From the IMG/VR virus record IMGVR_UViG_3300011547_000001: a stretch of DNA of 64,000 nt; one strand, 5' to 3'. Within the stretch, counting starts at the first letter, position 1; each line of letters starts with the position of its first letter. The stretch is from an uncultured virus (IMG/VR IMGVR_UViG_3300011547_000001) (taxonomy: Duplodnaviria; Heunggongvirae; Uroviricota; Caudoviricetes). The notes below the pieces were generated by a model. That model had not been told where the DNA came from and searched no databases. It worked only from the letters and a program-made list of their open reading frames with translations. Positions 11,110 to 57,533 of this stretch are shown piece after piece. A program made the position numbers and the translations under genes.

Positions 11110-12645
11110 TTACTCCAGCAGGCGGGAAACGATCAGCTCGATCATGGCAACGTGCAGACGCTCACGCTGGCTACGAACGTTGTCTTCCTCGGCCATGACG
11201 AAGGTAGCGGCGATGAGGTCAGCCGCCATGGTGCAGCCGATAGCCCGCAGGTAGCGAACGACCAGGTTGGTGCTCAGGATGGCCGCAGTACGGTCATCGA
11301 TCCCCACCCCTTCAACCGAGTCGCTACCGGCTACATCAGGGCCATTGGTGCCGCACCGTTCACTGACAATCGCGTAGACCGTGTTCAGTTCGTCGGAGAA
11401 GTTCTTGTACACCCAGTCGTGCAGACTCTGACCGGATTCCAGTTGCTTCTCGATGCGCTCGCGGCGGATTGGATCGGAAGAGAACTTGACAATGGCTTCC
11501 AGTGCACCCTTACGGAACACCACGCGACTTTCTTCAGTCAGCTTGGCGGCGCAGTTCGCGAAGTAGTTCCGCGCGTGCATTGCCGAAGGGGCAACGTCGT
11601 TGATGAAGTCGCTCACGGTCACGTTCTGGCCGGTCAGACGACCGTAGTACATGCCCATCAGGACTTCCTGGAACGAGTGGTTACCCGCCGTGATTTTCTC
11701 CAGCAGCTCATCGGTGTAATACACCTTGAGATCGCCGACCAGGAAAGGAACGTTCTCGAACACGCCACGGTCACCCGATTTCAGGACGACCGGTTCTTTC
11801 TGCTGGATAACCAGACGCTGTGCGCGATACGCCAGGATCAGTTTTTTCAGGTTGAGCAGGTAGACGGTGAAACCATGGAACAGCAGGTTGACGTACTCGC
11901 GGTAGTCGGCCAGCGAACCCGCCTTTAGCCACGGTACTGGATCGTCACAGCTGCGCATCTTGGTCAGGACCACGTACGCCTTCAGCAAGCGCGCGATATC
12001 GACCGACTTGATGGCGGAGAAGTCAAAGGTCCACTTGTCGTCGGACTTGAACGTCTCACGCAGGTCGTAACGTTCGTTGATCGTGCTGACGGCGTAGCTC
12101 AGGCTGCACTCGGGGTTATCGAGCACCGCACAGACTTCCGGGTGGTTGGTGGCCACGAATGCCTTGATGTCGGCGTCCGACGGGTAGTCGAAGGTCAGAC
12201 GTTCCAACTGACCCAGCCCGACAGCCGAATACGAAAGCGTGGTATCAGACGGCGAGGTCGGGAACAACGACGAGTCAAAGAACTTGTCGTCGACATTCAC
12301 GAACTGCACGCTGAAACGGCCGCAGGCGCGATCAGACAACATCTTCGGCGAATAGAGGATGCTGGTGTCTTTTGCGATCAGCTGCGCCAGAGGAGTGCCC
12401 TGGGTGCGGATGGTTTCCTGGGTCTCGCGGATGATCTCAGCGAGACGGGTACTGGAGGCTTCGAGGATGTCGCTGTGGGCGTTGTGCTCGGTGGCGTCGA
12501 GAACCTGTTCACGGAAGATGTCGGGAGTCAGCTGGAAGCCGTTCACCGAGACTTCGTTCAGACCTTGAACGACTGGGCCCGGAACCAGGGTACCGCCGCC
12601 TGCGGCAATCAGTTCACCGATGGCCAGACTGGATTTGCGAATCAT
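11110..12645 (-). CDS. Conserved phiKZ-like core/virion protein (gp177 position)
   Basis: 511-aa ORF in the late operon; synteny. Confidence 0.7.
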   Translation of the reverse strand: MIRKSSLAIGELIAAGGGTLVPGPVVQGLNEVSVNGFQLTPDIFREQVLDATEHNAHSDILEASSTRLAEIIRETQETIRTQGTPLAQLIAKDTSILYSPKMLSDRACGRFSVQFVNVDDKFFDSSLFPTSPSDTTLSYSAVGLGQLERLTFDYPSDADIKAFVATNHPEVCAVLDNPECSLSYAVSTINERYDLRETFKSDDKWTFDFSAIKSVDIARLLKAYVVLTKMRSCDDPVPWLKAGSLADYREYVNLLFHGFTVYLLNLKKLILAYRAQRLVIQQKEPVVLKSGDRGVFENVPFLVGDLKVYYTDELLEKITAGNHSFQEVLMGMYYGRLTGQNVTVSDFINDVAPSAMHARNYFANCAAKLTEESRVVFRKGALEAIVKFSSDPIRRERIEKQLESGQSLHDWVYKNFSDELNTVYAIVSERCGTNGPDVAGSDSVEGVGIDDRTAAILSTNLVVRYLRAIGCTMAADLIAATFVMAEEDNVRSQRERLHVAMIELIVSRLLE

Positions 12646-12815
12646 TACTCACCCCCTTTCTTCAGACGAGCAGTGAGTGCTTTCGCAATCTTCTCATCCT
12701 GGACGGCTTCAGGGAGCGGCGAGATGTACTCCAGCCCCACCTTAGCGATGGTACGTTTCACCAGCTCGGTAACGTTAGCTGCCGTAACGGTGGTTTCGAT
12801 AAACTTGTTCGACAT
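12645..12815 (-). CDS. Small protein (56 aa), below the ORF-track cutoff
   Basis: AAGGAG SD plus ATG at 12815; MSNKFIETTVTAANVTELVKRTIAKVGLEYISPLPEAVQDEKIAKALTARLKKGGE*; TAATG coupling to the next gene. Confidence 0.75.
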   Translation of the reverse strand: MSNKFIETTVTAANVTELVKRTIAKVGLEYISPLPEAVQDEKIAKALTARLKKGGE

Positions 12816-12833: not shown

Positions 12834-13748
12834 TTAAACAGGAGCCTGTTCGACAGCACGATTGGCTGGCAGCAGGCCCTTGTAGTATGCGGTGTAGACC
12901 GTGGTGTTGATCTCGCCAACGGTAATGACACCGTCTTTATTGAAATCGAAACCGTTGTTCTGCAAGTAAGACTTGACTTCAATCTTGATGTCAGAGTCTT
13001 TACGGAACAGAATCTCATCAGGCTTCTTGCCAACCGCGGCTGGGTAGAAGATGGTGAGGTAGAAATCTTCCAGGCGGGTGTAACGCTTACCGCGCTTCAT
13101 CCACATCTCGAAGTACTTGAACGCCAGGTCAAGCTGATCCAGCTGGGACATCTTGATGATATCAGCCAGCGGGATACCCAGGTCCTTCGCAGCCATCTCG
13201 CCGAACTGGATCAGACCGTAGTAGTTCGAACCACCGTTGTTGCGCTTGGCAGGATCGAACGTACCGCCAGACTCGAAGTACATGCAGGCCATCAGGGCAT
13301 GCGGTGCCTCAGCCCACAGGTTCCACTTCCTGCACCAGGCACGAACCTTGGCCACGAACTCCGGAGAAACCAGGGCAGACCACGCAGCGCCATAAACAGG
13401 AAGCTTGTTGTACGCGCGGTAGCTGGAGAACACTTTGCTGAAACCAGCATAGGTGTTGGTGCCCAGACCGGAGATGCCATCGACGGCACCAGGGTACAGG
13501 TTGAACAGCTTCAGATTGCTCTGAATGTCCTTGATGCCCTGCAAGGCACCTGCTTCACCGACTGCTTTGCTGATGGCCAGCGGTTTGGTACGACCGCCGT
13601 TGATGCGGTGATGATAGTCGTTGAACAGAGCCAGCGCACCGTCTGAGGTGTTCTTACCCCAAGCACCGTCGATGGTGCCGGGGTAAACCCCGGCCTCCTT
13701 CAACAGAACCTGGATGTCACGCACTGCGTTGAGCATCCGATAGTTCAT
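12834..13748 (-). CDS. Modular endolysin (N-terminal peptidoglycan-binding repeats plus lysozyme-like/lytic transglycosylase domain), EL188-like
   Basis: PG-binding motifs YPGTIDGAWGKNT and YPGAVDGISG; catalytic FESGGTF...GLIQF; FKYFEMWMKRGKRYTRLEDFYLTIF matches my recollection of phage EL gp188. Confidence 0.92.
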   Translation of the reverse strand: MNYRMLNAVRDIQVLLKEAGVYPGTIDGAWGKNTSDGALALFNDYHHRINGGRTKPLAISKAVGEAGALQGIKDIQSNLKLFNLYPGAVDGISGLGTNTYAGFSKVFSSYRAYNKLPVYGAAWSALVSPEFVAKVRAWCRKWNLWAEAPHALMACMYFESGGTFDPAKRNNGGSNYYGLIQFGEMAAKDLGIPLADIIKMSQLDQLDLAFKYFEMWMKRGKRYTRLEDFYLTIFYPAAVGKKPDEILFRKDSDIKIEVKSYLQNNGFDFNKDGVITVGEINTTVYTAYYKGLLPANRAVEQAPV

Positions 13749-16700
13749 TAGTCCTTCCCTCTGTAAATACGGATGAAGTTTTGGGTGACCTGGTAAGTCA
13801 GTTCGTTCGAGGCCAACTTGTCGCGCAAGCTCAGTACCATCCGGTTGAACATACCTTTAAAGCTTGCTTTGACATCGATCTGTCGACCGTCCTTCGTCCA
13901 AATGGCCTTGTCCATGATGTCCCCTACAGTGCCTTTCATCTGGTTGCCCAGTACGAACTTGTCGGCGGTGGTGCTAGGGTCCATCGATTCAACCACGATG
14001 CGGACAGAAACCCGCTCTGGAGGAAGGATAGGCTTGTTGACGGTCATCGAGTTGTTGACCACACCTTTCTTGACCGGATCGGCGATGTCAGCTTTACGAG
14101 CACGTACCGCATCAGCTGCCTTGATGAACTTTTTAAGGCTCGGAGACAGTTGATCTTCAGTGGCGTTGTACTCAACCGAAATGTCGACAATCTTGCCGTG
14201 GTGGTTCGAACGTACCTGCTTGATGCCCAGTCGGTTTACATCAGAAACGAGTTGATTTTCGTCGACCTCGCCACCGAGGTGGCCGTCTTCGTATTCGCAT
14301 AAAATCGCGTCGTAATCAACTTCATCGCCGACTTTAACCTTCCAACTGATGTTCTGGTTGGCGTTCAAACTGAAGCGGTTAGGCTTCAGGTAAGGCGTGA
14401 CCGATTGGTCTGCCAAGTGAGCAGCCACAGCGAGGGAGTCCTCGTAGGTAGTCTCGTCCTCAATGAGCGCTACACGTACCATCATCCCTACTTTCAGAAC
14501 CACCTGCCCAGGGCAGAAGATATCACGCTGGAACCAGGAATCATCCCAACCGATCACATCGCCCGCCTGGAACTTGTCGCCTACCTTCAGGTCAGTCACA
14601 CGGGTGTGGCGGTGCATTTCACCGCTCGCCTCACCAATCTTCAGACCCAGTGGGTATTTGTCAGTTGTCCCATCCTTGTACTTCACGGAGATGTAATCAT
14701 CGCCCATGGCCACCACTTGGCCGTCGTCTTGTGCGATCTTGCTGTACAGCTCGGACGTACGGTGAGCCGCAACGCTGTCGTAGCCAGTGCGGGTAATGTT
14801 CGGACCGTAGTTCGTAGCCGTTACCGCTTGACTCCACTGCGTCGAGGTAAACATCCCCCGCTTAGGGTCGTCCTTGGACATACCGAACGCAAGGTTACCC
14901 GTTACAGAAGACAGACCCGAAATGCTAGGCTTCTCACCCACTGCGATGTTGCCGCTGTAGTCAGAGATCCGTGGGTCACTGGTGGTGTAGGTGACGAAGC
15001 CCACCTTACCACTGTCCTTGTTCGCTTCCGAGAAACACCCCGGTAGCTATCAAGCTGCACGCGCGCACGCTTAACGATCGAGATCTCACCACGGCCACCC
15101 ACACCCCCGAAGGTCACTTCTTCCTGGTCTTTGAGTTGGTGAACGGGGTTCACTTCCTCTACCAAGTTGACGGACGTGTCAGTGATAATTTTCATCGTCA
15201 CTGCTTCTGGGTTGAAGTCGATCTTGTGCTTACGACCTTTACCTTTGTTGCGATACATCCGAATGGCCTTGCACCATTCGCGGTAGATATGCCCTGGGAA
15301 GCGCTCGTAGCCCACCAGGCGCTGTTCTTCCAGTTCTACCTCATGACGACTCCAGTCCGTCATCAACATCTTCGCAGCGTCCAGCAGGAGCCACGGGAAG
15401 GACACCGAGTAACCCAGGCGTTTCAGCTCTGCCTTGGTGATCGGGTCAATGAAGAGGTCGTGCATGTTCTTCATTTCCTGGAACTGCTTAGGACGGACCT
15501 TAGGGTCACCCATCAGCGGAACCCAGACACCCTGGTCGTTCAAGTTGACACGACTGAAGTTGCTGATGTTGTTCAAACGAGGCATCCCACCAAAGATCAG
15601 CGTTGGAAGCTTCTCACGGCGGTTGAAGATCAGATGCTCATCGTTGAAGGTGATTGCGTATTCGTCTTCGCTGAGCTTAGCGCGAGTACCAATCGGGACG
15701 GTGCGGGTAGTTGCTTTGGTAACACTCAGCAGCTTGTCGATGCCGAAGTAGTAGCACAGCACCACACCCAACGGGAACATGTAGCCGCCAATGTTGATAA
15801 CGGCGTATTCCGTAGGTGCTTTCGCAGTGCTGATCCCCAGCTGACCGTCCAGCGTCCCGATGTTCACACCGCCGACGTACAGGTTACCGTAGCTGTCGAT
15901 GGTAATCGGGTCACTGCCTTTAACCCCAATCAGGAAGTCATCAGGCTTGGTGTGCTTGCTGAACTCAGGATGTTCCTTCAACAGTTTTGCAATGTTGAAG
16001 TCCAACGTGAGGTCGCCTGCCTTGATCCATTGGAACTTAGCAGACATGATGGTGTACAGACGAGGAGGGTCGTAGTCACCGTTGAAACTGTCACCCCGGT
16101 TGAACGATACCCCACCATCTTTCTGAGCCGCCCGATGGACGATCTGCTTGATCAGCCATTCGCCCAGGTTATCAACACGCTTTTGGCTACGGCTAACCAT
16201 GAGTTTGATGTCATAGTAGCTGGTGAGTGCAACCTTGAACTTGTTGATTTTCCGGATAGGGCGCTCCATGCGTTGCAGTTGCATGTGACTCTTAACGCCG
16301 TCCACCGTGAACGAGCCGTCTTTGGCCACGCGTGGAACGCGGATGACGTAGGTGCCTTGTTCGCCGTCTACCGGATGGAGCTGAATGGTATAAACGTCGT
16401 AGACACCTTCCACACCATGTACGACTTCATGACGGAAATCGTTGATGGCGATACCGGCGTTCTGCAAGCCCAGGATCATCATCATGGTGTGTTTGTGGAG
16501 GAACTTGTCGGCGTAGCCCTGCTTGAGGACTTTGGCGCGACTACGCAGCATGCTCTTGTCGATAACCACCGGCAGGCGTGCTTTGATCTCAGCGTCAGCC
16601 TTCAGCGTCTTGAGGTCTTCCGGGTTTACCTGGGCGTATTCCTCCATGGTTTGACCGTTGGACAGTTCGATGTGCTTGAACTGGGTACCCTTACGCATGA

Positions 16701-18162
16701 AGAATTGCTGCTCAGCTACCGTCAGGATACCTTCTCGCGCACGCTCTTCCAGAGCAGCGGCGATACCACTTTCGTAGGAAGGGAACGGGTCTTTGTTGGT
16801 GGAGACCTCCGCAACAACCTTCTCTTGTTCGAGGAGACTGTCGTCTACTTCGGAGGTCCATTCTTCAGCGTCTTCAACAGAAGTTCGATCTCCCGATCCT
16901 CCCTCGGTTTCATCAGGTCCGTTGTTAGACTTTTGAACACCAGAGAGAACATCAGCGAGAGAGCGATCATCAGAATTATCTGGCCCAGTGTCAACTTCGC
17001 CAGGAACCGCTCCGACTCGTCCTTGATCGGGCTCTTGCCCTTTTCCTTTCTGAGCTTTCGACGCGCCTCCAGCCACTGCGGGATCTTGCGTTTCTTTTCC
17101 TGCTCCTCCGGCATTTTCATTCTCCTTGATAACTTCCAGCTCCGGAACAGAATCCCGAATCATGTTCATGAACGCCAGGTACACGCGCTTCGATACGTTG
17201 AGGCGTTTTACATGACCAGCCCGGTGACTTATCTGAGGCGGAGTATAGGTCTTACCCTTAGCCTTGGCTTTCTCCTCTTCCTCGGCGTTTTTAGCCGCGG
17301 TCTTCTCGATGTAGCGTTGATCGTAAAGCTCGTCCAGCCAGCTCTTCAGCGTCGCCATGTGGATGACCAGGCAACGACTGTTCGAGACGAAGATGAGATG
17401 GAGGGCTTCCAGCGACTTGGGCGTCAGCTTATTGAAAAGCGAATACTCGTAGTCGCCGAAGAGGAAGGCCAGCATGTCCAGCAGCCAGTACGAGCTTTCT
17501 GCCTTGACCGCCCCAACCATTTGGTTGTTAGGCACCGGCAGACCGTTCTGGAAACTACGGACGTAGTGATCGAAGTCAATGCTCAGATCAGCGAAGCCTG
17601 GCAGGTTGATCGGGAGGTCAATGCGCATGAACTGCTTGCGATCGCCGCGACCCGATTCTTCGTTGATGCCATTCATCATCTGACTGAAATGGTTGTAGTA
17701 CATCTCGTAGTTGACGAACACCGTAGGACGGGGTTGCCACATGCGATTTGTCAAACCATAGTTCTTGACAACGAGGACTTTCTCCTTGTTGTAAACCGTT
17801 CCGATGTTCTGCGTCCACTGGTAGACGTAGTGAGTACCACGATAGGCTTGGATGGCCTTCTTGATCTCAATCGGAAGTGAACGACCACTCCCCATGACGG
17901 GAGTAAAGGTGGAGACGAAATCAATAAAGACTTCGCCGGTGTAGTTGCTGATGAACGCCTCGGAGGTCGATGGACCGTAGTCTTCACCATTACGAGGCAG
18001 GAAGTGGATCAGGCTGTTACGGGGCAACGAGATTTCGCCAATCCCATGGAACTGCGGATTAACCAACTCTTGGCGCTTGCGCTGTACGAAGAAGCGAAAG
18101 AACTCGTTATACGTAACCGCCATTGCCTCCAGTCCAGCGACATCCGACAATGCGGTCGTCAT
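13748..18162 (-). CDS. Virion RNA polymerase beta subunit, N-terminal/major part (phiKZ gp178-like); frameshifted near 15033
   Basis: ORFs 14902-18162 and 13748-15004 join into about 1470 aa through ...GV/xSEANKDSGKVG. Motifs include GSFTVDGVK..MQLQR, VEEVNPVHQLK, YEDS and ADKFVLGNQMKG. Confidence 0.9.
14298..14306 (-). promoter_or_regulatory. Putative late promoter (GATTTTATG) for the endolysin-protease operon
   Basis: Same 9-mer as at 19468 and 37953. phiKZ late promoters carry a TATG core. Confidence 0.4.
16845..17120 (-). CDS. Overprinted single-TM membrane protein nested in the RNAP beta gene; candidate holin/antiholin
   Basis: AAGGAG-A-ATG-AAA-ATG start, basic N-terminus, hydrophobic LTLGQIILMIALSLMFSLVF and genome-preferred codons in the alternative frame. 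Confidence 0.65.
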   Translation of the reverse strand: MKMPEEQEKKRKIPQWLEARRKLRKEKGKSPIKDESERFLAKLTLGQIILMIALSLMFSLVFKSLTTDLMKPREDREIELLLKTLKNGPPK

Positions 18163-19781: not shown

Positions 19782-19804
19782 GATTGACCTACAGGAGTAA
19801 AGAG

Positions 19805-22800
19805 ATGGATGATTGGGATAACGACAACTGGGATAATGACGATCCCTTTGCGGGCGACTTTGACTTTGATACTGACTTCGACAAGCCCGCATCCAGTAAA
19901 GGTTTCCTTAGCAGTTTCGTAAGTGGTTTCCTCGGCGGCGTTGTCGGGAAAACCATCGGTGATACGGATGCACGGATCGACACGCTGAAGATGGTTCTTC
20001 CGCGCACGTGGACCAATGCGTTCAGCAACATGCGTCAGCTGAATGAGATGCGTCGTGAAGTCCTACAGGACATCAAAGCCGAGAGTTATCAGGCTGTAGA
20101 CGATCTTCAGTACTTGGCCGGCCGGGCAGCTAAAGCGCTCTCCGGCAAGGTCCCCAATAGAATTTCCGAAGGCTTCCTTTCTTTCAGCCAACGTGACTTT
20201 TCTGACTGGGAAAAAAGTGAGGGTTACTCCGCCCCAGAACTCGCCATGGGCGATGTTTCCGAGGAAGAAGTCAGCGCACTGATCCAGTCGGAAGACGCTA
20301 ACTCCATGCTGGAACGGGAGACGGCGGAGAACGTTGGCGAACGCACCATTGGCATGATGACAGAGATCGGTGGTCGCAGTATCGCCAACCTGTCCCACAT
20401 CAATACGTCGATGGTCCGTAGCAACCAGTTACTCGAAGAGTTGGTGAACTACCAACGTCGTGTGAAGACGCGTAATGACGCCCTTCAGCTTAACGTCATG
20501 GCACGACAGTACTTGACCAGCGCCAAGTTCTACAAGTTCATGGAAGCAGCGCAACACCGTTCCATTGACGAGCTGAAACAGATCAACAAGTACGCGCGTA
20601 TGTCCGACTATGAGAAGACCTCTCATAGCGATGCGTTCAAGCGCAGTCTCCGTGACTCGATTTTCAACACCGCTAAGAGTCAGTTTGGTGGTATCCGGGA
20701 ATTCATCACTGAACGTTTCTCCAAGGAGAATCGTGATGAGATAACCGGTTCGCTTGGTGAGATCACCAGTAGCCTGCGCATGGCTGCCGAGATGACCGAC
20801 GGCATGGACTTCAACATTGGTAACATGCTGGGCAATGCTGCCGCTGGCATGTTCATCAATAACCTGCCACGGATGATCAAGTCGGATAAAGGTCAGGAGT
20901 ACGTCGCCAAGTTCAAGAAGCAATTCCCTGAGCTGGGCAAGTGGGCGACCGATGCGTATATTCGTCTGGGTGATCTTGGACACGTAGCGTCTTACGTGAC
21001 CGGTAACGCCGAAGGCTTGATGAACACCCTGTCGAAACATTACAAGGGTGGTTTCTCCGACGAGCCAGAAAGCTACGACGAATACCTGGGAACCCTCGCT
21101 GATCAGAAGGATGCGATCAGTCGGTTCGAGTGGGAGATTGTTAGCAAGGCCCGTATGGCGGCTAACAAGACCCTGAGCGGCGTTCTGGACAACGTGTGGA
21201 GTGGTAACAACACTACGTTCGACCTGCAACGCCGTACGCTCGCCGACAGCCATGAGCGCGCCCTCTGGACCAAACGGGATAGCCGTACCCTGGTGGAAGA
21301 GATTCCGGCCTGGCTGGCTAACATCCACCTGTCGCTGGAGAAATTCCGGACGGGTAACGATGACCTGCGTATGGCGTCTTACGACTACGTGCGTGGTGGC
21401 TTCATTACCCATCAGCAAAAGGTTCAGGCAACGCTCAGCAAGGTGCTGGATAACAGCGGGTTCGAATATCAGGCTGGCGCGGCCATGCGTTTGGCTGAAG
21501 GTATTGACAAGGACAACGCCCTGTCGCCTGAGGCTAAGAAAGCACTCGCTTTCCGCCTGGCCCGTGACACCGACAAAAAGCTGGGGATCAACCCGTACAA
21601 CTATATCAACATGGAGGATGGTGACGACCCACTCGACGCGATGAGTCCGAAGCACAAAGCAGAGATCGAAAAGATCATGCGTGCTAACTTCGGTATCACC
21701 GACGAGCATGTCAAGAAGTTCTTCGAAGATGGGACTGAATACGATCGTGGTAAGTTGGCTGCGTACATGCCGACCGAAGCAGGTCGCGAGCTGTTGGCGA
21801 GTCTCTATGAACAAGCCAACAGCCTGGGGACGTTCCTTCCTGATGTTGGCCGTGACGTAGACCTCCTTAAGAGCACCGGTTGGTACGACGCGCTCAAGGA
21901 AACCGGTATCATCAAGAAGAACGAATACGGTCACGACGGACTGCCAACTGAAATAATGTGGCGGACCCTGATGAATCGTATCAACGATCCGGCTTACCGT
22001 GCGGGCATGCCTGTCCCTGACGCTCTGCCAGACCCTACAAGGCCGTTTGGTGGTTCGGGTGGTCCATTGCCACCATCTCCGTCCAAAGGCGGTCCTAAGG
22101 GCGGTCCTAGACCTCCTGTGCCGGGCACTCCTACGGGTGCTCTCGAAGTCAAGGGGATGGATGAGCTGGTTAAGTCCATGAAGGACCTGACCGGTGATAA
22201 GGGCTTGGCCAGTGTGCTCAAGAACTTCGATACCTCCCTGAACGGCAGACTTCAAGCACAATCGCCGTTGGCAGACCTGGGTCCCCTCAACTCGAACACC
22301 ACCACCATGACGGAGCAGCTTAAAACCCTGCTCGAGCTGGCAGGTAATCGCAACGATACCCTGCTCAAGATACTTGAGCGTCAGCCGTCTGAGAAACAAC
22401 AACCCACCAAGGACGAGGAGTCCAAGATCCAGCGCGCCAAGCGTAGCCTCATTGAACGTGTTAAGAGCTTCTCGCTCAAAGACACCTTCGACAAAGGCGT
22501 GGACATTCTCCTTGACCATGAACCACTGATTCTGGGTGGTCTCGCGACACTGGCTTATCACAACCCTCACGCGGCTGCGTTGGTGGGTGGCGGTGCCGCG
22601 GCGGCGATGGTTTATACCAAGATCCGCACCTTGGCTAAAATGCGTAGCGCTGAGGATGACGAGGACCTTTACGAGGAAGGATCTGACACGCCCATCCTCG
22701 AAGCTGATAAGCTGGCGAAAGGTAAGTACTACGACGCCACTAAAGGGTTCCTGATCAAGTCCTGGAAAGATATCTCGGGGAGTGTTAAGGACACCGTCAC

Positions 22801-45576: not shown

Positions 45577-48411
45577 ATGTTGAATTTGTTTGCTGTAGCC
45601 GTTAAACAGGCGGGGGTGTTCANNNNNNNNNNTGTTTCGTACAAAGCGTTGGCAACGGACATCGAAAAGTATTACAGCACCTCGTTGATCAACAAGTACA
45701 TGTCGAAACGAGAAACCTGGGATACCATCAAGGTCCATGATTTCTTCTTGCTGGAATTGCGCGACATCCTGGAAGCGCTGTTACAGGTACGTAACCTGCG
45801 TAGCCGCAGGCGTGACCTGTCGCAATTGAAACACCTCATCGAGACCGAGACCTGGGTTAAGGATACAGTGATCCCTACTGGTCCTTCTTTTGACTTCAAG
45901 AAGCTGAATCGCTTCAAGACGAAACTCTACATCACTCAACGGGAGTTCTTGGAACAGTATCCTGTTATCACCCACAGTTACCACCTGAAAGGACTGGCCC
46001 TAGATGCCAAGGCAGGCAGTGGCAAAGCCATGCCGCTTAATACACTGGTAAAGGTACCGGGTGGCTGGCACAAGTTGGGTGAGCTTAGTATAGGTAGTCC
46101 AGTTGTAGGACCCAAGGGCAACATCGCCACGGTTACTGGCGNNNNNNNNNNTTATCCACAAGGGCTTACTGAGGTCTACCGCTTCCACTTTGAAGATGGC
46201 CGTCAGGCAGATTCTCACCCTCTTCACTTGTGGGAAGTGATTGAATCTGATTTGGGGGATGAGCCTAATCAAAGGGTTAGTATCACCACCACCCAGGACA
46301 TCGTTAACCACTTCATGCAGTTCGGCTACTCGTTGCCGCTGGTGAGCGAGATTGGCGGAAGTGATACTCCGCCTAGCGTTAATGCTAAAAACATCGTAGA
46401 CGCCCTTGTAGAGCCTGGAGCGGTGTTTGATGAAGCACTGCTGGAACTTCCTTACAACGACCGCCTGGATATACTCCAGGAAATTGTGGCAACCACTACC
46501 TGCCATGTGAGCGAGGGTAATCTGGCTCTGTTCGCTGATGACCTTCACGTCGCCAAAGCGTTCCAACGGTTGATATGGAGTGTTGGCGGGACGGCGAAGT
46601 ACGGAACGCGTGGCAGTAAGCACGTCGTCTTCTTCAAGCACCGTGAAGCGCGCTACATCATTGCGGTGAAGACGCCCGGCTACCTCGACGACGATTACTT
46701 CACTCCGAAAGGATTGAAGATCACGTCCGTGGTTAAAGTGGACCCCCAAGAGACGCTGTGTATCAGCATCGACAGTGAGGATAAACTCTTCGTTGTTGAT
46801 GACTACGTGGTTACTCACAACACGTTTACAGCGCTGGTATGGTCGCAGTTGGTTAGCGATAACCCCACCATGGTTCTGTGTCCTCTGAATATCGTGGACG
46901 AGGTGTGGATAAAGGAGCCCCTCAAACACTTCAATCGCCCTCCTAAGGTCTGGACGTCCAAGTCAGGACTGCCATTGAAAGAAGGGTATGATTACTACAT
47001 CGTACACTACGACTACCTCCAACGTGAAGGCTACGGACTCCTCACCAAGTTCCTCAAGGCGTATAAGGACAAGCACAAGGAAGGGTTAGATCTCATCGTA
47101 GACGAGTCGCATAACTTCAACGAGATCAAAGCCAAGCAGACGCAGCGGCTTATCGAGTTGTGCGATGCGGATTTGTTCGGTAATGCGCTTCCAATGTCGG
47201 GCACACTGTTTAAGGCATTGGGTCGAGAAGTCTTCCCGATCATGTGCATGATTGCCAAGAACTTCGATCAGTATGCACGGGCTGGTTTCGAAGGGAGTTA
47301 CGGGCGTAATCGTCCTGCACTCATGGACCTGCTGTCTAAAAGAATTGGCCGCAGTAAGTTCACCATTCCAGAGATTCAAGGAATGGGTGAGGCTCCTCCG
47401 TTTGAGATCATCAAGGTTCAGTTCCCTGGCAGTGACCGTTACACGCTGGATGCGATTCGGCTGCAAATGCAGACGTACATCTCGGAGCGTATGCGGTTCT
47501 ACAACAAGCACATGCCTGAGTTCATCGAGTTCTACAACGACGTGATTGGTCGTTATGAATTCTCCATCCAGAAGTACCCCAAGGACCTGGCGGACCTACA
47601 ACGCTATAAGGCGATTGTTAACCGCTTCCGTACCCAGGGGTATAACAACTTCACGGATGCGCCTGACAGCGTGTTCTGTAAGGCTGTGGAGGAGGACATC
47701 GAGCGTGGGCTCAGGGGGCGTGAGTTGTCTGACTTCCGCAGTATCAAGTCAGCGGTGAAGTACCTGGGGCTTAAGCTGCGCGGTGAAGCATTGGGTAACG
47801 TGTTGGGGCGTGCTCGCATTGAAGCGATCAAGGAAATGATCTCTCATGCTAACCTTGAGAAATATATTCTGGACGTTGAGAAGAAGACCCTCATCTTTAC
47901 GTCCTACGTGGAAAGTCTCAAGATAGCTCAGGACGACCTAGGGGCTAAGGGTTTCAACATGGTAACTGTCTACGGCGAGAACAGCCATGAACGGGACGCC
48001 ACTGTTGAACGTTTCAGGAACGATCCAAATGTCAACCCGCTGGGCGCTACGTACGAGAGCCTACGGGAAGGTTATCCGTTGATCATGGCCAACCAGATCA
48101 TTGGGCTGGATTCTCCGTTCAGGGACTACATCATCAAGCAAGTGAAGGCCCGTATCTGGCGGATCGGACAGGACGCACCCCAATGCTACTTCCGGATGTT
48201 GGATATGGATACAGGAGACAAACTGAATATCCTGACGCGCAGTCTGGACATCCTAGCCTGGAGTAAAGAACAGGTTGATGCTCTCCTGGGTAACGTGGAT
48301 AACTCCGCGGTGTTTGCGACGGTGACGGGCGAAGAAGCGTTTGAGTACAGCTACGAGCCCATCCCGGTTCCGCTTGATGGTAGTAACTGCGCGCTTGCTT
48401 TGTTTGTCTAA
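45577..48411 (+). CDS. SF2 (SNF2/DEAD-like) helicase containing an intein
   Basis: Walker A AGSGK|T, Walker B IVDESHN, motif III MSGT and motif VI QVKARIWRIGQ. Confidence 0.9.
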   Translation: MLNLFAVAVKQAGVFXXXXVSYKALATDIEKYYSTSLINKYMSKRETWDTIKVHDFFLLELRDILEALLQVRNLRSRRRDLSQLKHLIETETWVKDTVIPTGPSFDFKKLNRFKTKLYITQREFLEQYPVITHSYHLKGLALDAKAGSGKAMPLNTLVKVPGGWHKLGELSIGSPVVGPKGNIATVTGXXXXYPQGLTEVYRFHFEDGRQADSHPLHLWEVIESDLGDEPNQRVSITTTQDIVNHFMQFGYSLPLVSEIGGSDTPPSVNAKNIVDALVEPGAVFDEALLELPYNDRLDILQEIVATTTCHVSEGNLALFADDLHVAKAFQRLIWSVGGTAKYGTRGSKHVVFFKHREARYIIAVKTPGYLDDDYFTPKGLKITSVVKVDPQETLCISIDSEDKLFVVDDYVVTHNTFTALVWSQLVSDNPTMVLCPLNIVDEVWIKEPLKHFNRPPKVWTSKSGLPLKEGYDYYIVHYDYLQREGYGLLTKFLKAYKDKHKEGLDLIVDESHNFNEIKAKQTQRLIELCDADLFGNALPMSGTLFKALGREVFPIMCMIAKNFDQYARAGFEGSYGRNRPALMDLLSKRIGRSKFTIPEIQGMGEAPPFEIIKVQFPGSDRYTLDAIRLQMQTYISERMRFYNKHMPEFIEFYNDVIGRYEFSIQKYPKDLADLQRYKAIVNRFRTQGYNNFTDAPDSVFCKAVEEDIERGLRGRELSDFRSIKSAVKYLGLKLRGEALGNVLGRARIEAIKEMISHANLEKYILDVEKKTLIFTSYVESLKIAQDDLGAKGFNMVTVYGENSHERDATVERFRNDPNVNPLGATYESLREGYPLIMANQIIGLDSPFRDYIIKQVKARIWRIGQDAPQCYFRMLDMDTGDKLNILTRSLDILAWSKEQVDALLGNVDNSAVFATVTGEEAFEYSYEPIPVPLDGSNCALALFV
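46027..46821 (+). mobile_element. Class 3 intein in the helicase Walker A motif
   Basis: Starts AMPLNTLV (Ala1), block B HPLHLW, block F ETLCISID, ends VVTHN|T. Confidence 0.9.
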
Positions 48412-49658: not shown

Positions 49659-50792
49659 TTAGAACATACGCTCCTTGAAGTCAACAACCTCGAAATGGTT
49701 ACCTCCGCGCAGAAGCACTACAGGGTGCACCGCCTTGTCGTAGAACTCCGTGGTTGGGTAGATCGTATCGCGGGTGTATTCCAGTCCTTCATAGCCGCGG
49801 TCGTCACGCAGCGCTGCCAGGATTTTGCTAACCAGCTCGCTGATACTGTGTCCCCGGAGAATGTTGGGGAAGTGTTGCTGGAGTGTGGAGACCTGTTCGT
49901 GAACGTACAGGAACTTGACGACTTCAGGGGTGTCCTGGAAGATAACCCGGGGCAGCTCGAACGAGATGTCCTGGATAGTCTTACGCAGTGGTGGGGAGGA
50001 GAACCCGTAGTCTCTGAGCTTGGGACGAATGGGTTTCTGCGGTTCCACCATGACGCCAGAGCCGTTACGGCTGGTCTGGTAGAGGGAAACACCGCGGTAG
50101 TCCGCGTCGGCGCCATTACAGCGAATAACGTTAAGCAGACCGATCGGGAATTCCTCGTCGACGAAAGGAGCACCAGCAATTTGTTCCAGCGTACCGATAA
50201 CGATCAGGCTCCAGCCAGTAACCAGTGGCAGTGGGGTGGAGGGGAACGTAGCCGGAAGGCTGTCCAGCACGCTCTGGAGAGTAGCTCCGTTGATAGGCCA
50301 GTGACCCGCCATATAACGGTCGTTCAGATAGCGCGAAATGATCGCCACTGGATTGTGGTCACCGCCCGCGGACATGAACGGAGACAACAGATGAAGAACA
50401 TCCACGACCAACGGATACTCTTCTTGCCCAGGGCCGGTATGGACTGGGTATTTACGCCCGGGGTGTTTGGACAGGAAATTGACAACGGAGCCCAGGGTTT
50501 TGAATTCACGAAGCTCACCAACGAGATCGGTCGGATCCAGCTGGTCGATGGTCCTTACGGAGAAGAAACAGGCAGTCAGGTTTTCCTGATACTCGCGTTC
50601 TTCAGTCCCTGGGAAGAAACCGAGCGAGGTGAAACGGGCTTCTGGTTTCACCTCGGCACTGAGACGGTGTTCTTTGTCCAGGATCCCGACGAACTTCAAA
50701 AGCTCTTCGCCGTGCGTTTCGAACTGGTCAGCCACAGAGCGCGCCCAGATCTTTTCCATTTCGTCGAAAGTCTTACCTTGTGACATGGTCAT
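49659..50792 (-). CDS. Hypothetical protein (377 aa)
   Basis: Long ORF with ATGA coupling. Confidence 0.8.
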   Translation of the reverse strand: MTMSQGKTFDEMEKIWARSVADQFETHGEELLKFVGILDKEHRLSAEVKPEARFTSLGFFPGTEEREYQENLTACFFSVRTIDQLDPTDLVGELREFKTLGSVVNFLSKHPGRKYPVHTGPGQEEYPLVVDVLHLLSPFMSAGGDHNPVAIISRYLNDRYMAGHWPINGATLQSVLDSLPATFPSTPLPLVTGWSLIVIGTLEQIAGAPFVDEEFPIGLLNVIRCNGADADYRGVSLYQTSRNGSGVMVEPQKPIRPKLRDYGFSSPPLRKTIQDISFELPRVIFQDTPEVVKFLYVHEQVSTLQQHFPNILRGHSISELVSKILAALRDDRGYEGLEYTRDTIYPTTEFYDKAVHPVVLLRGGNHFEVVDFKERMF

Positions 50793-51755: not shown

Positions 51756-51947
51756 TTACAGCAGGCCCATCAATCCGGCGAGCTTTTCAACAGCGAGGTA
51801 CAGCGACCACGGAGTCCAGATAGCGAAGAGGGTAGAGATAACACCCTTAGCCAGCACAATCCCGTAGAAGTACAGGAACACGAACAACACGATTACAGCG
51901 AACTTGAAGTTGCTGAAACCGAAAACTACCCTGACGCTATTTGCCAT
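51756..51947 (-). CDS. Small two-TM membrane protein (63 aa)
   Basis: MANSVRVVFGFSNFKFAVIVLFVFLYFYGIVLAKGVISTLFAIWTPWSLYLAVEKL... Confidence 0.7.
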   Translation of the reverse strand: MANSVRVVFGFSNFKFAVIVLFVFLYFYGIVLAKGVISTLFAIWTPWSLYLAVEKLAGLMGLL

Positions 51948-52104
51948 AACGTTTAAGCCCCCGTAGGCGTTCGACGTTGTTGTCGATGAGGATATCGAGC
52001 TGCCTGGCGCGTGTGTACTCACCTTGTCTCAGTGCTACCCGACGAAGGTGCATTTGTTTCTTGATTGCACACCCAAGCACGCGGATCTGTTCCTTTACTT
52101 GCAT
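51937..52104 (-). CDS. Small basic hypothetical protein
   Basis: Tightly packed in the early cassette; probable start MQVKEQ. Confidence 0.6.
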   Translation of the reverse strand: MQVKEQIRVLGCAIKKQMHLRRVALRQGEYTRARQLDILIDNNVERLRGLKRYGK

Positions 52105-52362: not shown

Positions 52363-52470
52363 TTACAAGAAAAGCTTGACAACCCGAGCGGTCTCCAAAA
52401 CACAAGAGACAAAGAAACCGCCCAGAATCAAGCAGCCCGCTATAAAAGCTAACAGGCTAATGACTTTCAT
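52363..52470 (-). CDS. 35-aa hydrophobic membrane peptide
   Basis: MKVISLLAFIAGCLILGGFFVSCVLETARVVKLFL*; GAGGA SD and ATGA overlap with the upstream stop. Confidence 0.6.
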   Translation of the reverse strand: MKVISLLAFIAGCLILGGFFVSCVLETARVVKLFL

Positions 52471-54521: not shown

Positions 54522-57500
54522 ATGATGGCTATCAATGACGAAACAGTAACACCCGGGGAACTCCAACCCATTCAGGAACCGGCGGTCTGGGTAGAACATC
54601 TGCCCGCAATGGAGAGTACCGTAATTCTCCGTGCTGGCGACGATGGTCTGGGTGCGTTGAACTTCCAGGCTCGCGCCCTGGACTCTCGTACCCGCTACCT
54701 GTTGGCCATGTTCAACGGCCTGACTGGTAACGGTATCATTCTGAAGGGTCATCTGGACTCCGAAGCAGAGCTGAACGCCATTCCAACCGAAGGGCTGCAA
54801 GTAGGTACCGCGTACTTCGTGGACTTCGCTCTGCGTGCGTGGAACGGCACCATCTGGGCCTCCTCCGGCAGCTTGCAGGGCGACCGTGGCATTACCCTGC
54901 TGGGGACCTGGCCCGATGAGTTGTCTCTGCCAAACGTGGCCGAGTACAAACTCGGTGATGCGTTCACCTGGAACCATGACGTATGGATCCTGGTCCCTGG
55001 TAACGAGGACACCGACCCGAACAAGTGGGAGAACCTGAACATCCGCGGTAAGGATGGTAAGAGCACCTACGAGATCTGGCTGGAAATCCCTGGTAATGAA
55101 GGCGGTTCGTACAACGACTTCATGATCGCTCAGAAAGGCCGTGATGGTGACGACGCACCTACCGCCTGGTTCAAACGTCCCGGCAACGAGGACAAGACCC
55201 TTGCTGACTACGACGCCTACTACAAGGGTTTGAAAGGCGATACGGGTGCGCCTCGTGCCGCATTCGTTGTAGCGGGTGCCAAAGCCACCACCGGCGATCT
55301 TCCACGCCCTGGTGACGAAACCAAAGCCTGGTACGTGGGTATCGACCTGTACGTCTGGGTCGAAGAAGACACCGATTACATCATGATCCCAGGTGTGGCC
55401 GGTAAGTCCATGTACGAGATGTGGCTCGAGAAACCCGGTAACGCCGGTAAGACCGAAGCCGAAATGTGGGAAGATCTAAAGGGTGAGCCTGGTAACGACT
55501 CTACTGTACCGGGCCCACCGGGTGCAGACGGTCGTAACCTGCGCAACCTGGGTACTCGCGAAAACGTGGCCGAGATCCGCGCTATCGAAGACCCCGATGA
55601 CCAAGATGCGTATTGCGCACTGGATACCGGCCATCTGTGGATGTACATCGTTCCGAAGAACGAAGAAGTCGGCGTCTGGACTGACCTCGGCCCATGGCGC
55701 GGTATTGACGGTAAAAACGCTTACGAACTCTGGTTGGAGGACGGTCACGAAGGGGCTTCCATTGAAGACTTCTGGAACTTCTTCCGTGGTACCAGCCTGG
55801 TTCTGCGTGGCGTTGTTCCTACCATGGCTGGTCTGCCAGCCAACCCAGAAGAGCAGTGGATCTACGGCGTCCGCGATGAAAGCACCGTCTACATGTATTT
55901 GGACGGCGGTTGGGTATCCATGGGTACCTTTGGCAAGGACGGCGAGAACGGCAAGTCGACCTTCCAGGAATGGAAAGACGACGGTCACCCTGACGGCACC
56001 CTGGAGGAGTTCTGGGAAGCGCAACGAGGTAAGGACGGGGTTAACCTGGACTACATCAAGATCCTCACCCCAGAGGCTCCTGAGCCGCCTGAACCTACCG
56101 AGGAGAACAAGGGCAAGGCGTACATTTCCGAAGACCACTACGTCTGGATCAACATCACTGGCTCCAACTGGGAGAACGCCGGCCCGTTCCAGCCAGCAGG
56201 TGAACGCGGTCTTGACGGTCAGATGTGGATCCCGAAAGGGATGGTGCCTACTGCCGCTGATCTGCCAGGCGCTCAAGTAGCTGAAAAAGGTTGGGCGTAC
56301 GGTGTTGCCGAGACCGGTTTGGTTCACGTTTACGACGGAGAATATTGGTCGGCTGGTATTGACCTGCGTTCCGTCGTACCTGGTCCACCGGGTAACGATG
56401 GCGCTCCTGGCGCGCTGATGCCGATTCTGGATATCTATGAGTCCATGGCGGAACTGGTAGCAGCCCATCCAACCGGTTCTCTGGGCGACGCGTATCTGAT
56501 CGTAGATGACAACGTTGAGCCTGCGATTCGTGATCTGGTCATCTGGTCTCCGTCCACCAGTGCTTGGAAGAACACCGGACCTGCTGGCATCCCTGGCGCG
56601 GACGGTAAAAAGGGTGAGCCTGGTAACGACTCTACTGTACCGGGCCCTCAGGGCAGTCGCTGGTTGAACCTTGATTCCCTCGAACCACCAAGCAATACCT
56701 TTAACGGCCGCGAAGGCGACTGGGCCGTCAACAAGCTTAACCGCATCTACTACAAGTCCCCTACCGGTTGGGTGCAGTGGGGTACTCTGGTAGCGGGTGA
56801 CGTCAACTCCCCTCTGCCATCGGAAGGCAAGGTTGTGCGTTATGGAACCACTTGGATCCCACTCCCAGTGGACGAAGTCATCAACCCACAAACTGGTGAG
56901 TATTACGTTCGCCAGCGCGTGGGAACAACCGATAAAACCGCTTGGGTTACCATGCCGAAAGGTATTGCCGACCTTAGCCTGAATAACGGCATTCAGTACG
57001 TTCGGGTCTTCGAGATTGATGGCACTGTTCCTATCTGGAAACAGATCGCGTTCCCAGAACCTGGTATCGGCGAGGTGCCGAATCCAGAAGAGAACGCCCT
57101 CTACCTGCGGAACGGTTTCGGGCATTCCTGGACGAAGTATGTCCAGGCACCAAGCAACGGCAAGACCTACGTCCAGAAGAATGGTGAGTTCATCTCCCTG
57201 GACCGTATGGACTATCCGATCAAACGGGTTAATGCCTCCGATACCCTGGACCCACTGGTTAACCAGGCACTGCGTATCGATAACAGCTCTGCAACCTCGA
57301 AGACCATCACGCTCAATGCGGGTGTCGGTGGTGGGGCTGGTGTTGAGCGCGCAATGCTCGTACCGGTGATCATTGTCGGTAAGGTGGGTGCGGTTACCTT
57401 CGCAGGCGCCAACGGCGTCACGCTGGAGTGGGATAAAGCCACTGTCCCGACGATCACGAACAAACTGACCATTCTGTCCTTCTTCTGGACGGGTGAGCAG

Positions 57501-57533
57501 TGGGTTGGTTCCGTCGGTCCTAAAGTACCTTGA
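54522..57533 (+). CDS. Tail fibre protein with collagen-like and tandem modular repeats
   Basis: N-terminal anchor (LNFQARALDSRTRYL), repeated GKSxYExWLE modules, GPPG/GEPG collagen stretches and Trp-rich ~50-aa repeats. Confidence 0.85.
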   Translation: MMAINDETVTPGELQPIQEPAVWVEHLPAMESTVILRAGDDGLGALNFQARALDSRTRYLLAMFNGLTGNGIILKGHLDSEAELNAIPTEGLQVGTAYFVDFALRAWNGTIWASSGSLQGDRGITLLGTWPDELSLPNVAEYKLGDAFTWNHDVWILVPGNEDTDPNKWENLNIRGKDGKSTYEIWLEIPGNEGGSYNDFMIAQKGRDGDDAPTAWFKRPGNEDKTLADYDAYYKGLKGDTGAPRAAFVVAGAKATTGDLPRPGDETKAWYVGIDLYVWVEEDTDYIMIPGVAGKSMYEMWLEKPGNAGKTEAEMWEDLKGEPGNDSTVPGPPGADGRNLRNLGTRENVAEIRAIEDPDDQDAYCALDTGHLWMYIVPKNEEVGVWTDLGPWRGIDGKNAYELWLEDGHEGASIEDFWNFFRGTSLVLRGVVPTMAGLPANPEEQWIYGVRDESTVYMYLDGGWVSMGTFGKDGENGKSTFQEWKDDGHPDGTLEEFWEAQRGKDGVNLDYIKILTPEAPEPPEPTEENKGKAYISEDHYVWINITGSNWENAGPFQPAGERGLDGQMWIPKGMVPTAADLPGAQVAEKGWAYGVAETGLVHVYDGEYWSAGIDLRSVVPGPPGNDGAPGALMPILDIYESMAELVAAHPTGSLGDAYLIVDDNVEPAIRDLVIWSPSTSAWKNTGPAGIPGADGKKGEPGNDSTVPGPQGSRWLNLDSLEPPSNTFNGREGDWAVNKLNRIYYKSPTGWVQWGTLVAGDVNSPLPSEGKVVRYGTTWIPLPVDEVINPQTGEYYVRQRVGTTDKTAWVTMPKGIADLSLNNGIQYVRVFEIDGTVPIWKQIAFPEPGIGEVPNPEENALYLRNGFGHSWTKYVQAPSNGKTYVQKNGEFISLDRMDYPIKRVNASDTLDPLVNQALRIDNSSATSKTITLNAGVGGGAGVERAMLVPVIIVGKVGAVTFAGANGVTLEWDKATVPTITNKLTILSFFWTGEQWVGSVGPKVP
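55478..56647 (+). repeat. 39-bp exact direct repeat (55478-55516 and 56609-56647)
   Basis: AAAGGGTGAGCCTGGTAACGACTCTACTGTACCGGGCCC occurs twice, 1131 bp apart and in frame. Confidence 0.9.

Follow-up and report, generated by a model that had tools for sequence, protein, structure and literature searches.

In a 64-kb viral sequence (64,000 nucleotides; "the window" below is this whole stretch of DNA), the gene encoding the beta subunit of the virion RNA polymerase (RNAP) harbours a second open reading frame. This nested ORF (16845..17120, minus strand) consists of 91 codons, counted from the first ATG, and a TAG stop, and is read in the +1 frame of the beta gene. The overlapping segment is dual coding and the nested frame is under purifying selection. 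Judged from its sequence and that of its relatives, the nested ORF is very probably a genuine gene that is translated and overprints beta. An initial sequence-only reading of the window had suggested a hidden gene at the RNAP beta linker; this suggestion is strongly supported by the presence of a homologous ORF in 23 of the 29 beta genes examined, and by the selection acting on the nested frame. Translation of the ORF, the topology of its product and any role in lysis are what we infer from these data.

Dual coding in the RNAP beta gene

The beta gene is of the EL gp186/phiKZ gp178 type and is split into two ORFs in the window. The first of these (14902..18162, minus strand) showed 53% identity to the RNAP beta of EL in a tblastn search, and is continued after a frame change by the second (13748..15004, minus strand). 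In the relatives the subunit is encoded by a single ORF of 1463–1528 residues, and identity to the IMG/VR relatives is 57–68%. The nested ORF starts 1042 nt into the first ORF, hence in its +1 frame, and overlaps beta residues about 348–440, where the beta frame reads as a linker rich in G, E, D, K and A. Coordinates and frame offset thereby confirm the 91-codon ORF that had been described in an alternative minus-strand frame over this linker. The accompanying claim, that the nested frame uses the usual codons of the genome and the RNAP frame atypical ones, is also confirmed. The CAI of the nested frame is 0.66, which is above all 466 control +1 windows, whereas that of the beta frame across the same stretch is 0.575, corresponding to the 3rd percentile of true-frame windows. 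GGA, the least used Gly codon (8%), occurs 11 times in the beta frame here. GC3 averages 0.63 across the gene, compared to 0.75 for the nested frame and 0.32 for the beta frame over this stretch.

The third-position diversity of beta is 0.3–0.5 elsewhere in the gene, and drops to 0.05–0.13 only over beta residues about 351–440. Counted by first, second and third beta codon position, variable sites number 44, 27 and 21 in the overlap versus 134, 74 and 356 in the flanks (p=3.5e-12). The independent pair of loci L007/L021 gave 23, 13 and 5 versus 37, 19 and 168 (p=7.7e-14). Apparent dN/dS values (NG86) are 0.11–0.41 for the nested frame, 0.8–3.1 for the beta frame and 0.05–0.18 for the flanks, and the codon periodicity shifts to the nested frame over the overlap. 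The comparison proposed together with the sequence-only reading had asked whether relatives keep an open frame, the SD, a TM helix and reduced synonymous variation; the open frame, a start codon, the TM helix and the reduced synonymous variation were all found to be conserved.

The length of the nested ORF alone is within chance expectation. In 45 genes taken from the window, the +1 frames contain seven ATG-initiated ORFs of at least 91 codons, and when codons were reshuffled synonymously with the linker amino acids fixed, the nested frame was open 41% of the time. Since long +1 ORFs are common and the frame is often open on reshuffling, the length is unremarkable. The same figures speak for the possibility that there is no gene, and that the open frame and its conservation are a by-product of the low-complexity linker composition or of a constraint at the nucleic-acid level. 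Across the family members openness is likewise likely given the linker amino acids (P 0.05–0.9) and, owing to the genetic code, E-rich codons automatically yield K-rich +1 frames and SD-like runs. We nevertheless regard this explanation as very improbable. Selection on beta only cannot explain why beta first positions evolve fastest and third positions slowest, and a three-base period is not expected from RNA structure. Beyond chance are the hydrophobic helix and the comparative evidence. None of 1000 synonymous reshuffles of the window's ORF attained the hydropathy of its helix. Among the 23 members, at most 2.6% of reshuffles did so in 17, and 7.7–25% in the other six. Furthermore, in phages that share only 33–53% beta identity, conservation is higher in the nested than in the beta frame, whereas control +1 ORFs decay in relatives, one being closed in 3/3 and the other having internal stops in 23/27. 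No IMG/VR relatives were obtained for the control regions 54522..57533 and 49659..50792.

Distribution and origin of the nested ORF

The beta genes with a homologous +1 ORF (75–116 codons) form one clade. Carriers include EL, RisingSun, Miami and OBP, phages of Vibrio, Aeromonas and Shewanella, and metagenomic relatives. The ORF is absent from the beta genes of phiKZ, 201phi2-1, RSF1, Xoo-sp14 and Desertfox. In D3 it is degenerate, and D3 was left out of alignment A2 as well as of the SD and charge counts. On the beta tree this distribution requires one gain and one loss. Three loci (L002, L008 and L012) that are near-identical to L001, L007 and L004 have open frames and were excluded from later counts, and L009, L013 and L015–L020 were excluded as duplicates.

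An HMM built from 11 EL-like sequences, run against 1305 six-frame peptides, found the +1 ORF in 12 of 18 distant phage loci (E-values 2e-20 to 3.6e-4). When the HMM was made from the beta frame of the same nucleotides, scores were far lower, exemplified by EL with 21.8 bits versus 69.1 bits for the nested frame. A profile search for free-standing homologues, using a profile that matched four of five genomes carrying the nested ORF, found none in Desertfox, Xoo-sp14, RSF1, 201phi2-1 or phiKZ.

The family had no match in Pfam, PHROG or NCBIfam, where the few sporadic hits had E-values of about 0.01 or weaker, and none of the 23 members matched the holin families of PHROGs, Pfam and NCBIfam. A PDB sequence search with the family profile gave 0 hits, and the best score in the ESM Atlas was 0.84, with hypothetical clusters only. 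The nested ORF is annotated in none of the GenBank records examined. Searches for homologous proteins found two short proteins, unnamed or misnamed, with alignment A1, and none with alignment A2. A profile search of 1.84 billion proteins returned 11 hits. Six of these are short proteins of the same family from contigs of 309–40437 bases, annotated as hypothetical or spuriously named, and five are long proteins that match the basic region only.

The distribution points to a single birth of the ORF, which would have taken place in the acidic, disordered beta linker of an ancestor of the EL/RisingSun/Miami/OBP/Gorgonvirinae jumbo phages. Read one base later, the GAR and AAR codons of the linker would give Lys/Arg codons as well as SD-like purine runs, and its T-ending Asp, Ser, Gly and Val codons would give the hydrophobic helix in the +1 frame.

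Start sites and predicted product

Directly upstream of the nested ORF is the SD-like hexamer AAGGAG (17122..17127, minus strand), which is formed by Lys-Glu codons of the beta frame. It is followed by an A and then by ATG-AAA-ATG-CCG-GAG, so that the spacing is 1 nt to the first ATG and 7 nt to the second. The second in-frame ATG (Met3; 17112..17114, minus strand) is the better-placed start and would give a product of 89 residues; the anti-SD duplex energy is -8.5 kcal/mol for this ATG and -4.5 kcal/mol for the first. The sequence-only reading had reported the SD and its spacings to both ATGs, and these can be read directly in the sequence. It had also proposed a dual-start holin/antiholin, which we do not find to be a conserved feature. 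A Met-Lys-Met start occurs in 1 of 23 members, namely the window's ORF, a second ATG no more than four codons from the first occurs in 6 of 23, and the spacing of the first ATG is poor. All 23 members have an ATG upstream of the hydrophobic helix. An SD duplex of -6 kcal/mol or stronger at an ATG is present in 15 of them, compared to 6.3% of 1649 background ATGs, an enrichment that is inflated because the linker is purine-rich. Ribosomes would start at an internal ATG behind a purine-rich SD, in the window most likely at Met3.

All 23 family members (75–116 residues) follow one plan, in which a basic N-terminus leads into a single hydrophobic helix and the protein ends in a short charged tail. 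In the window, the basic N-terminal region (16995..17111, minus strand), taken as residues 1–42, has a net charge of +7; it contains the invariant W16 and R20, and residues 15–28 are predicted to be helical. Short contigs from four sequencing runs, covering parts of 16000–18000, showed one low-depth variant, at 17065, which changes an amino acid of the nested frame (A19E) and falls on a beta third position, a point against our reading. The hydrophobic helix LTLGQIILMIALSLMFSLVF (16935..16994, minus strand; residues 43–62) is flanked by K42 and K63. In the AF2 model this stretch lies within a helix spanning residues 31–69, with a pLDDT of 80–90 over residues 41–60. The short charged C-terminal tail (16848..16934, minus strand; residues 63–91) has a conserved R76-E77..L motif and a conserved G88. 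Helix and tail are thus as they had been noted from the sequence of the window.

Across the 23 members, the best 17-residue hydropathy is 1.98–2.75, the basic N-terminus has 11–44 residues and the predicted periplasmic tail 25–59 residues. The C-terminal part is longer than the N-terminal part in the OBP/pEt-SU subgroup. By the positive-inside rule alone, the topology is probably N-in/C-out, with the net charge being higher on the N-terminal than on the C-terminal side in 19/23 members, equal in two and reversed in two. The product of 89–91 residues would accordingly consist of a basic cytoplasmic N-terminus of ~40 residues, one TM helix and an amphipathic periplasmic tail of ~30 residues.

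A candidate holin and the alternatives

The beta gene adjoins a gene for an endolysin of the EL gp188 type (12834..13748, minus strand), and the nested ORF, which has the same orientation, begins 3.1 kb upstream of this gene rather than beside it, a point against a holin role. The endolysin (304 aa) carries a PG_binding_1 domain at its N-terminus, and no signal segment, TM segment or hydrophobic N-terminus was found in it. This agrees with the earlier statement that an endolysin without signal peptide directly follows the RNAP gene. The same order is found at 20 relatives' loci and in EL, and also in RisingSun, Miami, PDCC-1, pEt-SU, AVP1, FishSpeaker and Yubaba. After the endolysin comes a conserved soluble protein of 56 residues (EL gp189 type, phrog_17945; 12645..12815, minus strand), given here as context only. 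A search for spanins in the window revealed one lipobox-like ORF of 35 residues, and no lipoprotein ORF embedded in a 152-residue protein with a TM segment and a coiled coil.

Classic features of holins are the small size, the single helix and the charged tail of the product, and the co-oriented position of its ORF upstream of a signal-less endolysin. A holin role of the nested ORF is plausible, as both the predicted topology and the position fit. We tentatively propose that the product may be a class III-type holin or holin-forming subunit through which the signal-less endolysin encoded after beta is released. The candidate holin would come from the same late transcript as the virion RNAP. 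More speculatively, it may have been born de novo by overprinting of the beta linker and have since then been the lysis timer of an entire branch among the nucleus-forming jumbo phages.

Overprinted lysis genes are known, such as Rz1 inside Rz in lambda and E inside D in phiX174. Like these, the nested ORF would encode a small, membrane-directed protein in the +1 frame, from an internal start, and is fully contained in a longer gene of the same orientation. Unlike these, its host gene encodes an RNA polymerase subunit and not a lysis or scaffold protein, and the putative product resembles neither Rz1, a lipoprotein, nor E, an MraY inhibitor with an N-terminal TMD. In lambda S, which has three TMDs, the first helix is N-out and its flipping is retarded by Lys2. 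The window's ORF also begins with Met-Lys-Met, as in S105/S107, whereas its product has one helix, predicted to be N-in, behind ~40 residues with a net charge of +7. A three-TMD plan of the lambda S type was not found, as there is one hydrophobic helix only. One TMD and the N-in/C-out topology (predicted for the nested product) are shared with the class III holin T of T4, to which the nested family showed no homology in PHROGs or Pfam. The portion of PMC12894885 on T4 T gives it a large periplasmic domain, whereas the predicted periplasmic tail of the nested product has 25–59 residues.

The passages on phiKZ gp142 in Manohar et al. (2026, PMC12894885) describe it as a class III (IIIB) holin with one TMD, a predicted N-in/C-out topology, a cytoplasmic soluble domain and a periplasmic tail of about 30 residues, serving a soluble PG-binding transglycosylase endolysin. 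The nested product would share this gross plan of one TMD, predicted N-in/C-out topology and a small periplasmic tail. By the same passages, however, ~80 of the 131 residues of gp142 form an N-terminal helical bundle, compared to 11–44 basic residues in the nested N-terminus, and the gp142 gene stands free in a cassette together with spanins and the regulator gp143, whereas the nested gene is overprinted in RNAP beta. There is no sequence similarity between gp142 and the nested family (hhalign probability 0.2%). Homologs of gp142 were not detected in EL, RisingSun, Miami, OBP, USC-1 or AVP1; a search of 10 genomes gave a match in 201phi2-1 only, and the two families co-occur in none of the genomes searched. 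A complementary distribution of the two families was considered and dropped, since gp142 was also undetected in Desertfox, Xoo-sp14 and RSF1, which lack the nested ORF, and the pattern is therefore not clean.

A real single-pass membrane protein with a job other than lysis would be compatible with all evidence that the gene is real. The protein could, for instance, exclude superinfecting phages, tether an assembly or ejection step to the membrane, or modulate a host membrane process, and the location in beta would then reflect merely where an open, SD-rich and stop-poor frame existed. The synteny of beta and endolysin is older than the nested ORF. Desertfox has kept the order beta, transglycosylase, small ORF and structural genes without the nested ORF, which indicates that the ancestral arrangement worked with a holin encoded elsewhere; no SAR-like N-terminus was found in the Desertfox endolysin. 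Furthermore, no holin family was matched, and the window has other small membrane ORFs that are alternative holin candidates, one with two TMDs (phrog_16613; 51756..52022, minus strand) and one at 52363..52470 (minus strand). The conservation across several host genera, with the low dN/dS given above, also fits a non-lysis job, as holins are usually less steadily conserved. However, no positive evidence points to any alternative function, the product has the classic holin features, and the competing two-TMD ORF was not detected in EL, RisingSun, Miami, OBP or phiKZ, although this is weak evidence. We consider a non-lysis job somewhat less likely than the holin role.

Distinctly less probable is that the ORF is a real lysis gene whose product is not the hole-former, but assists a holin from another locus, either as a regulator (antiholin or holin partner) or as some other accessory. 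Relatives that lack the nested ORF but have this synteny must have their holin at another locus, and a later-born gene could be an added timer. The N-terminus, which is long, basic and probably cytoplasmic, is reminiscent of a regulatory domain such as that described for gp142 in PMC12894885. Against this, no partner was identified, and the two-TMD ORF of the window is not detectably conserved in the clade.

With the nested ORF, well-studied jumbo phages that serve in therapy or as models, EL and OBP among them, gain a conserved gene that is missing from their annotation. It would also represent a clean and datable gene birth by overprinting in a disordered linker, for which pre-event relatives can still be compared. 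Edits of the beta linker, including "synonymous" recodings, should not be regarded as neutral. As a candidate holin, the nested product is a concrete candidate for the missing holin of the branch that carries it, where the phiKZ-type gp142 was not found. The part of PMC13678102 that deals with an Aeromonas chimallivirus likewise reports that no holin gene was detected. If the holin proposal is true, overprinting would explain the lack of an annotated holin in the EL/OBP/RisingSun/Miami/Vibrio/Aeromonas/Shewanella branch, and the dose of holin would be coupled to the late beta mRNA.

The nested reading frame and its host gene

The window belongs to an EL-like jumbo phage; it has 52.5% G+C and nine masked N runs. 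Its ORF 14902..18162(-) encodes a virion RNAP beta subunit with 53% identity to that of EL, and 57–68% identity to those on 12 IMG/VR and nine metagenome contigs. The sequence-only reading had claimed a 91-codon ORF in an alternative minus-strand frame over the RNAP linker. This nested ORF is indeed present at 16845..17120(-), starting 1042 nt into the beta gene and thus in its +1 frame. The sequence AAGGAG (17122–17127(-)) is followed by A-ATG-AAA-ATG, and residues 43–62 form a hydrophobic stretch, LTLGQIILMIALSLMFSLVF. Across the nested ORF the beta frame encodes a G/E/D/K-rich linker. The same reading described usual codons in the nested frame and atypical ones in the RNAP frame, and this was confirmed: the nested-frame CAI of 0.66 exceeds all 466 control +1 windows, the beta-frame CAI over the overlap is 0.575 (3rd percentile among true frames; GGA occurs 11 times), and GC3 is 0.75 in the nested versus 0.32 in the beta frame.

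The beta gene also changes frame at 14902–15050(-), where the first ORF continues to 14902 and homology goes on in another frame (...SEANKDSGKVGF...). Compared with the relative's locus L010, a single base seems to have been inserted or lost, which may reflect an assembly error or a genuine split. In relatives beta is a single ORF of 1463–1528 residues; the beta genes of EL and FishSpeaker are also in two pieces.

The length of the nested ORF is by itself little evidence. The +1 frames of 45 window genes contain seven ATG-ORFs with 91 codons or more, and synonymous reshuffling with the linker amino acids fixed left the +1 frame open in 41% of trials, because G/E/D/K/A codons seldom make +1 stops. 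Further long +1-frame ORFs lie within large genes at 55597–56280, 21252–21644, 23952–24383 and 49718–50116 (227, 130, 143 and 132 codons); no relatives were found for two of their host genes. Very long antisense ORFs are found opposite beta (15136–17880(+), 914 codons) and opposite the gene for a 2401-residue protein (20429–25243(-), 1604 codons). Nothing marks these as genes, and they illustrate the stop-poor non-coding frames of the genome.

Conservation and coding of the nested frame

The sequence-only reading had proposed comparing relatives for an open frame, a retained TM helix and reduced synonymous variation, all of which were observed. In a beta alignment of the window and 14 distinct relatives the +1 frame is open in 15/15 rows, from a stop just upstream of an ATG to a stop within the conserved beta motif xVDD, and every product combines a basic N-terminus with a single hydrophobic helix and a tail that carries an E-x-R-E..L motif. 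Stops abound in the +2 frame of this alignment. Adding 17 GenBank phages and phiKZ gave 29 beta genes, leaving out L002, L008 and L012 (near-copies of L001, L007 and L004, with the +1 frame open in the first alignment) and the duplicates L009, L013 and L015–L020. The nested ORF is present in 23 of these: the window, 10 metagenomic relatives, EL, RisingSun, Miami, USC-1, PDCC-1, OBP, AVP1, AH04, FishSpeaker, N1M2, pEt-SU and Survivor. It is absent from beta of Desertfox, Xoo-sp14, RSF1, 201phi2-1 and phiKZ. In Aeromonas phage D3 (L031, 1574–1897) the homologous +1 frame is still open and encodes a hydrophobic stretch, but its tail is diverged and it goes unrecognised by the family profile; this copy is possibly decaying or fast-evolving. 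A branch with 100% SH-aLRT separates the carriers from the rest in a quick IQ-TREE beta tree with midpoint rooting only and long branches flagged, and on this midpoint-rooted tree their pattern requires one gain and one loss (D3). By tblastn, Survivor-type ORFs were found in 19 phage records and EL-type ORFs in nine, where the annotation beneath the matches is the beta gene alone.

That the nested ORF is not a gene is very improbable. A non-circular HMM from 11 EL-like nested sequences, searched against 1305 six-frame peptides, detects the +1 ORF in 12/12 distant carriers (E 2e-20 to 3.6e-4) and matches nothing in six non-carriers. The beta-frame HMM of the same nucleotides is far weaker (EL 21.8 vs 69.1 bits), detecting only 6/12 distant carriers with E up to 10. 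Among five close relatives, differences at beta codon positions 1/2/3 follow the usual pattern in the flanks (0.11/0.06/0.34); in the overlap they are 0.225/0.134/0.135, which in the nested phase reads 0.153/0.101/0.252. Variable sites number 44/27/21 in the overlap versus 134/74/356 in the flanks (p=3.5e-12), and 23/13/5 versus 37/19/168 in the independent pair L007/L021 (p=7.7e-14). A composition artefact or RNA structure cannot give a three-base period shifted by one. Scanned along 785 codons in a sliding window, the third-position diversity of beta drops to 0.05–0.13 solely at residues ~351–440, the nested ORF spanning residues 348–440. Nei-Gojobori ratios for 15 pairs are 0.11–0.41 in the nested frame, 0.8–3.1 in the beta frame on the same bases and 0.05–0.18 in the flanks. 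The beta frame is likewise open in 29/29 genes; selection therefore acts on both frames. Codon choice also matters for the hydrophobic helix: its hydropathy is attained by at most 2.6% of synonymous reshuffles in 17/23 members and by 7.7–25% in the remaining six. As controls, a 90-codon +1 ORF in 45577..48411 is closed in 3/3 relatives, and a 79-codon +1 ORF at another site in beta (17751..17990) is interrupted by stops in 23/27.

Predicted protein and start site

AlphaFold2 with an 11-row alignment predicts helices at residues 15–28, 31–69 and 73–87 (mean pLDDT 69.6; 80–90 over residues 41–60). Net charge is +3 to +15 N-terminally and -2 to +8 C-terminally, and is higher at the N-terminus in 19/23 members, which by the positive-inside rule suggests an N-in/C-out topology. 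No family match was found in Pfam, PHROGs or NCBIfam, and no sequence match in the PDB; the ESM Atlas yielded nothing beyond hypothetical clusters. Searching 1.84 billion proteins with a profile gave 11 matches, six of them short members of this family, hypothetical or spuriously named.

An ATG lies upstream of the helix in every member; 15/23 have one whose SD pairs with an anti-SD motif at -6 kcal/mol or better, against 6.3% of 1649 background ATGs, a contrast inflated by the purine-rich linker. The dual-start holin/antiholin reading found no support as a feature of the family: Met-Lys-Met occurs in 1/23 members, the window only (in five others a second ATG follows within four codons), and in the window it is the second ATG that the SD serves. 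In lambda the mechanism operates on a first helix that is N-out; it would not carry over to an N-in helix preceded by a net +7 region.

Possible role in lysis and origin

A holin is a tentative assignment for the nested product. As had been claimed, an endolysin without signal peptide (304 residues, PG_binding_1) directly follows beta in the window; it does likewise in 20 fetched loci, EL, RisingSun, Miami, PDCC-1, pEt-SU, AVP1, FishSpeaker and Yubaba, and in OBP the endolysin gp279 adjoins beta gp278 (PMC3352856). According to a recent report, the phiKZ class III holin gp142 has a single TMD, N-in/C-out, its N-domain lying in the cytoplasm and a small tail in the periplasm (PMC12894885), the same gross plan as predicted for the nested protein. 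Homologues of gp142 were detected in 201phi2-1 and in none of six carrier genomes searched, and an Aeromonas chimallivirus paper records that a holin gene was not detected (PMC13678102).

The nested product being a membrane protein with a non-lysis role is a somewhat less likely alternative, and its being another lysis accessory is unlikely. The signal-less endolysin, the plan shared with gp142, the lack of gp142 matches in carriers and the precedents for overprinted lysis genes, Rz1 and phiX174 E, favour lysis. Against it, the nested protein has no homology to gp142, which was also undetected in the non-carriers Desertfox, Xoo-sp14 and RSF1. In Desertfox the same beta-transglycosylase-small ORF-structural block occurs but lacks the nested ORF, so the synteny is older than the nested gene and hence not diagnostic. 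The window's other small membrane ORFs also speak against a lysis role. Two cluster in an intergenic gap and are alternative lysis or holin candidates: 51756–52022(-) (63–88 residues, two hydrophobic helices; phrog_16613, function unknown), undetected in EL, RisingSun, Miami, OBP and phiKZ, and 52363–52497(-) (also given as 52363..52470; 35–44 residues, lipobox-like IAGC). A third, 40473–40931(-), encodes 152 residues with one TM helix after ~30 residues and a long helical/coiled-coil-like tail (phrog_18283, function unknown); its plan resembles an i-spanin, and no lipoprotein ORF was found embedded in or adjacent to it.

Directly after the endolysin lies a conserved gene for a 56-residue soluble protein (12645–12815(-); EL gp189 type, phrog_17945), syntenic in 20 loci and EL, with small ORFs at the equivalent place in Miami and Desertfox. 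The 2401-residue protein (19784–26989(+)), encoded divergently beside the RNAP genes, has a C-terminal Glyco_hydro_19-like lysozyme domain and looks like the virion-associated peptidoglycan hydrolase of phiKZ gp181 type.

Non-carriers likewise have an acidic linker at this beta site. Read one base on, GAR codons become AAG/AGG, and GAG/GAA runs supply SD-like sequence, so that an acidic linker lends itself to the birth of a basic ORF that is free of stops and preceded by an RBS; the stop comes from the conserved V-D-D codons of beta. In the passages covered of the literature on jumbo-phage holins, overlapping RNAP genes, EL188, Chimalliviridae and phage Miami, a gene lying within RNAP beta is nowhere mentioned. 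Overprinted small membrane proteins are already known as a kind; what is new is the nested-ORF family, how widely it occurs and the gene that hosts it.
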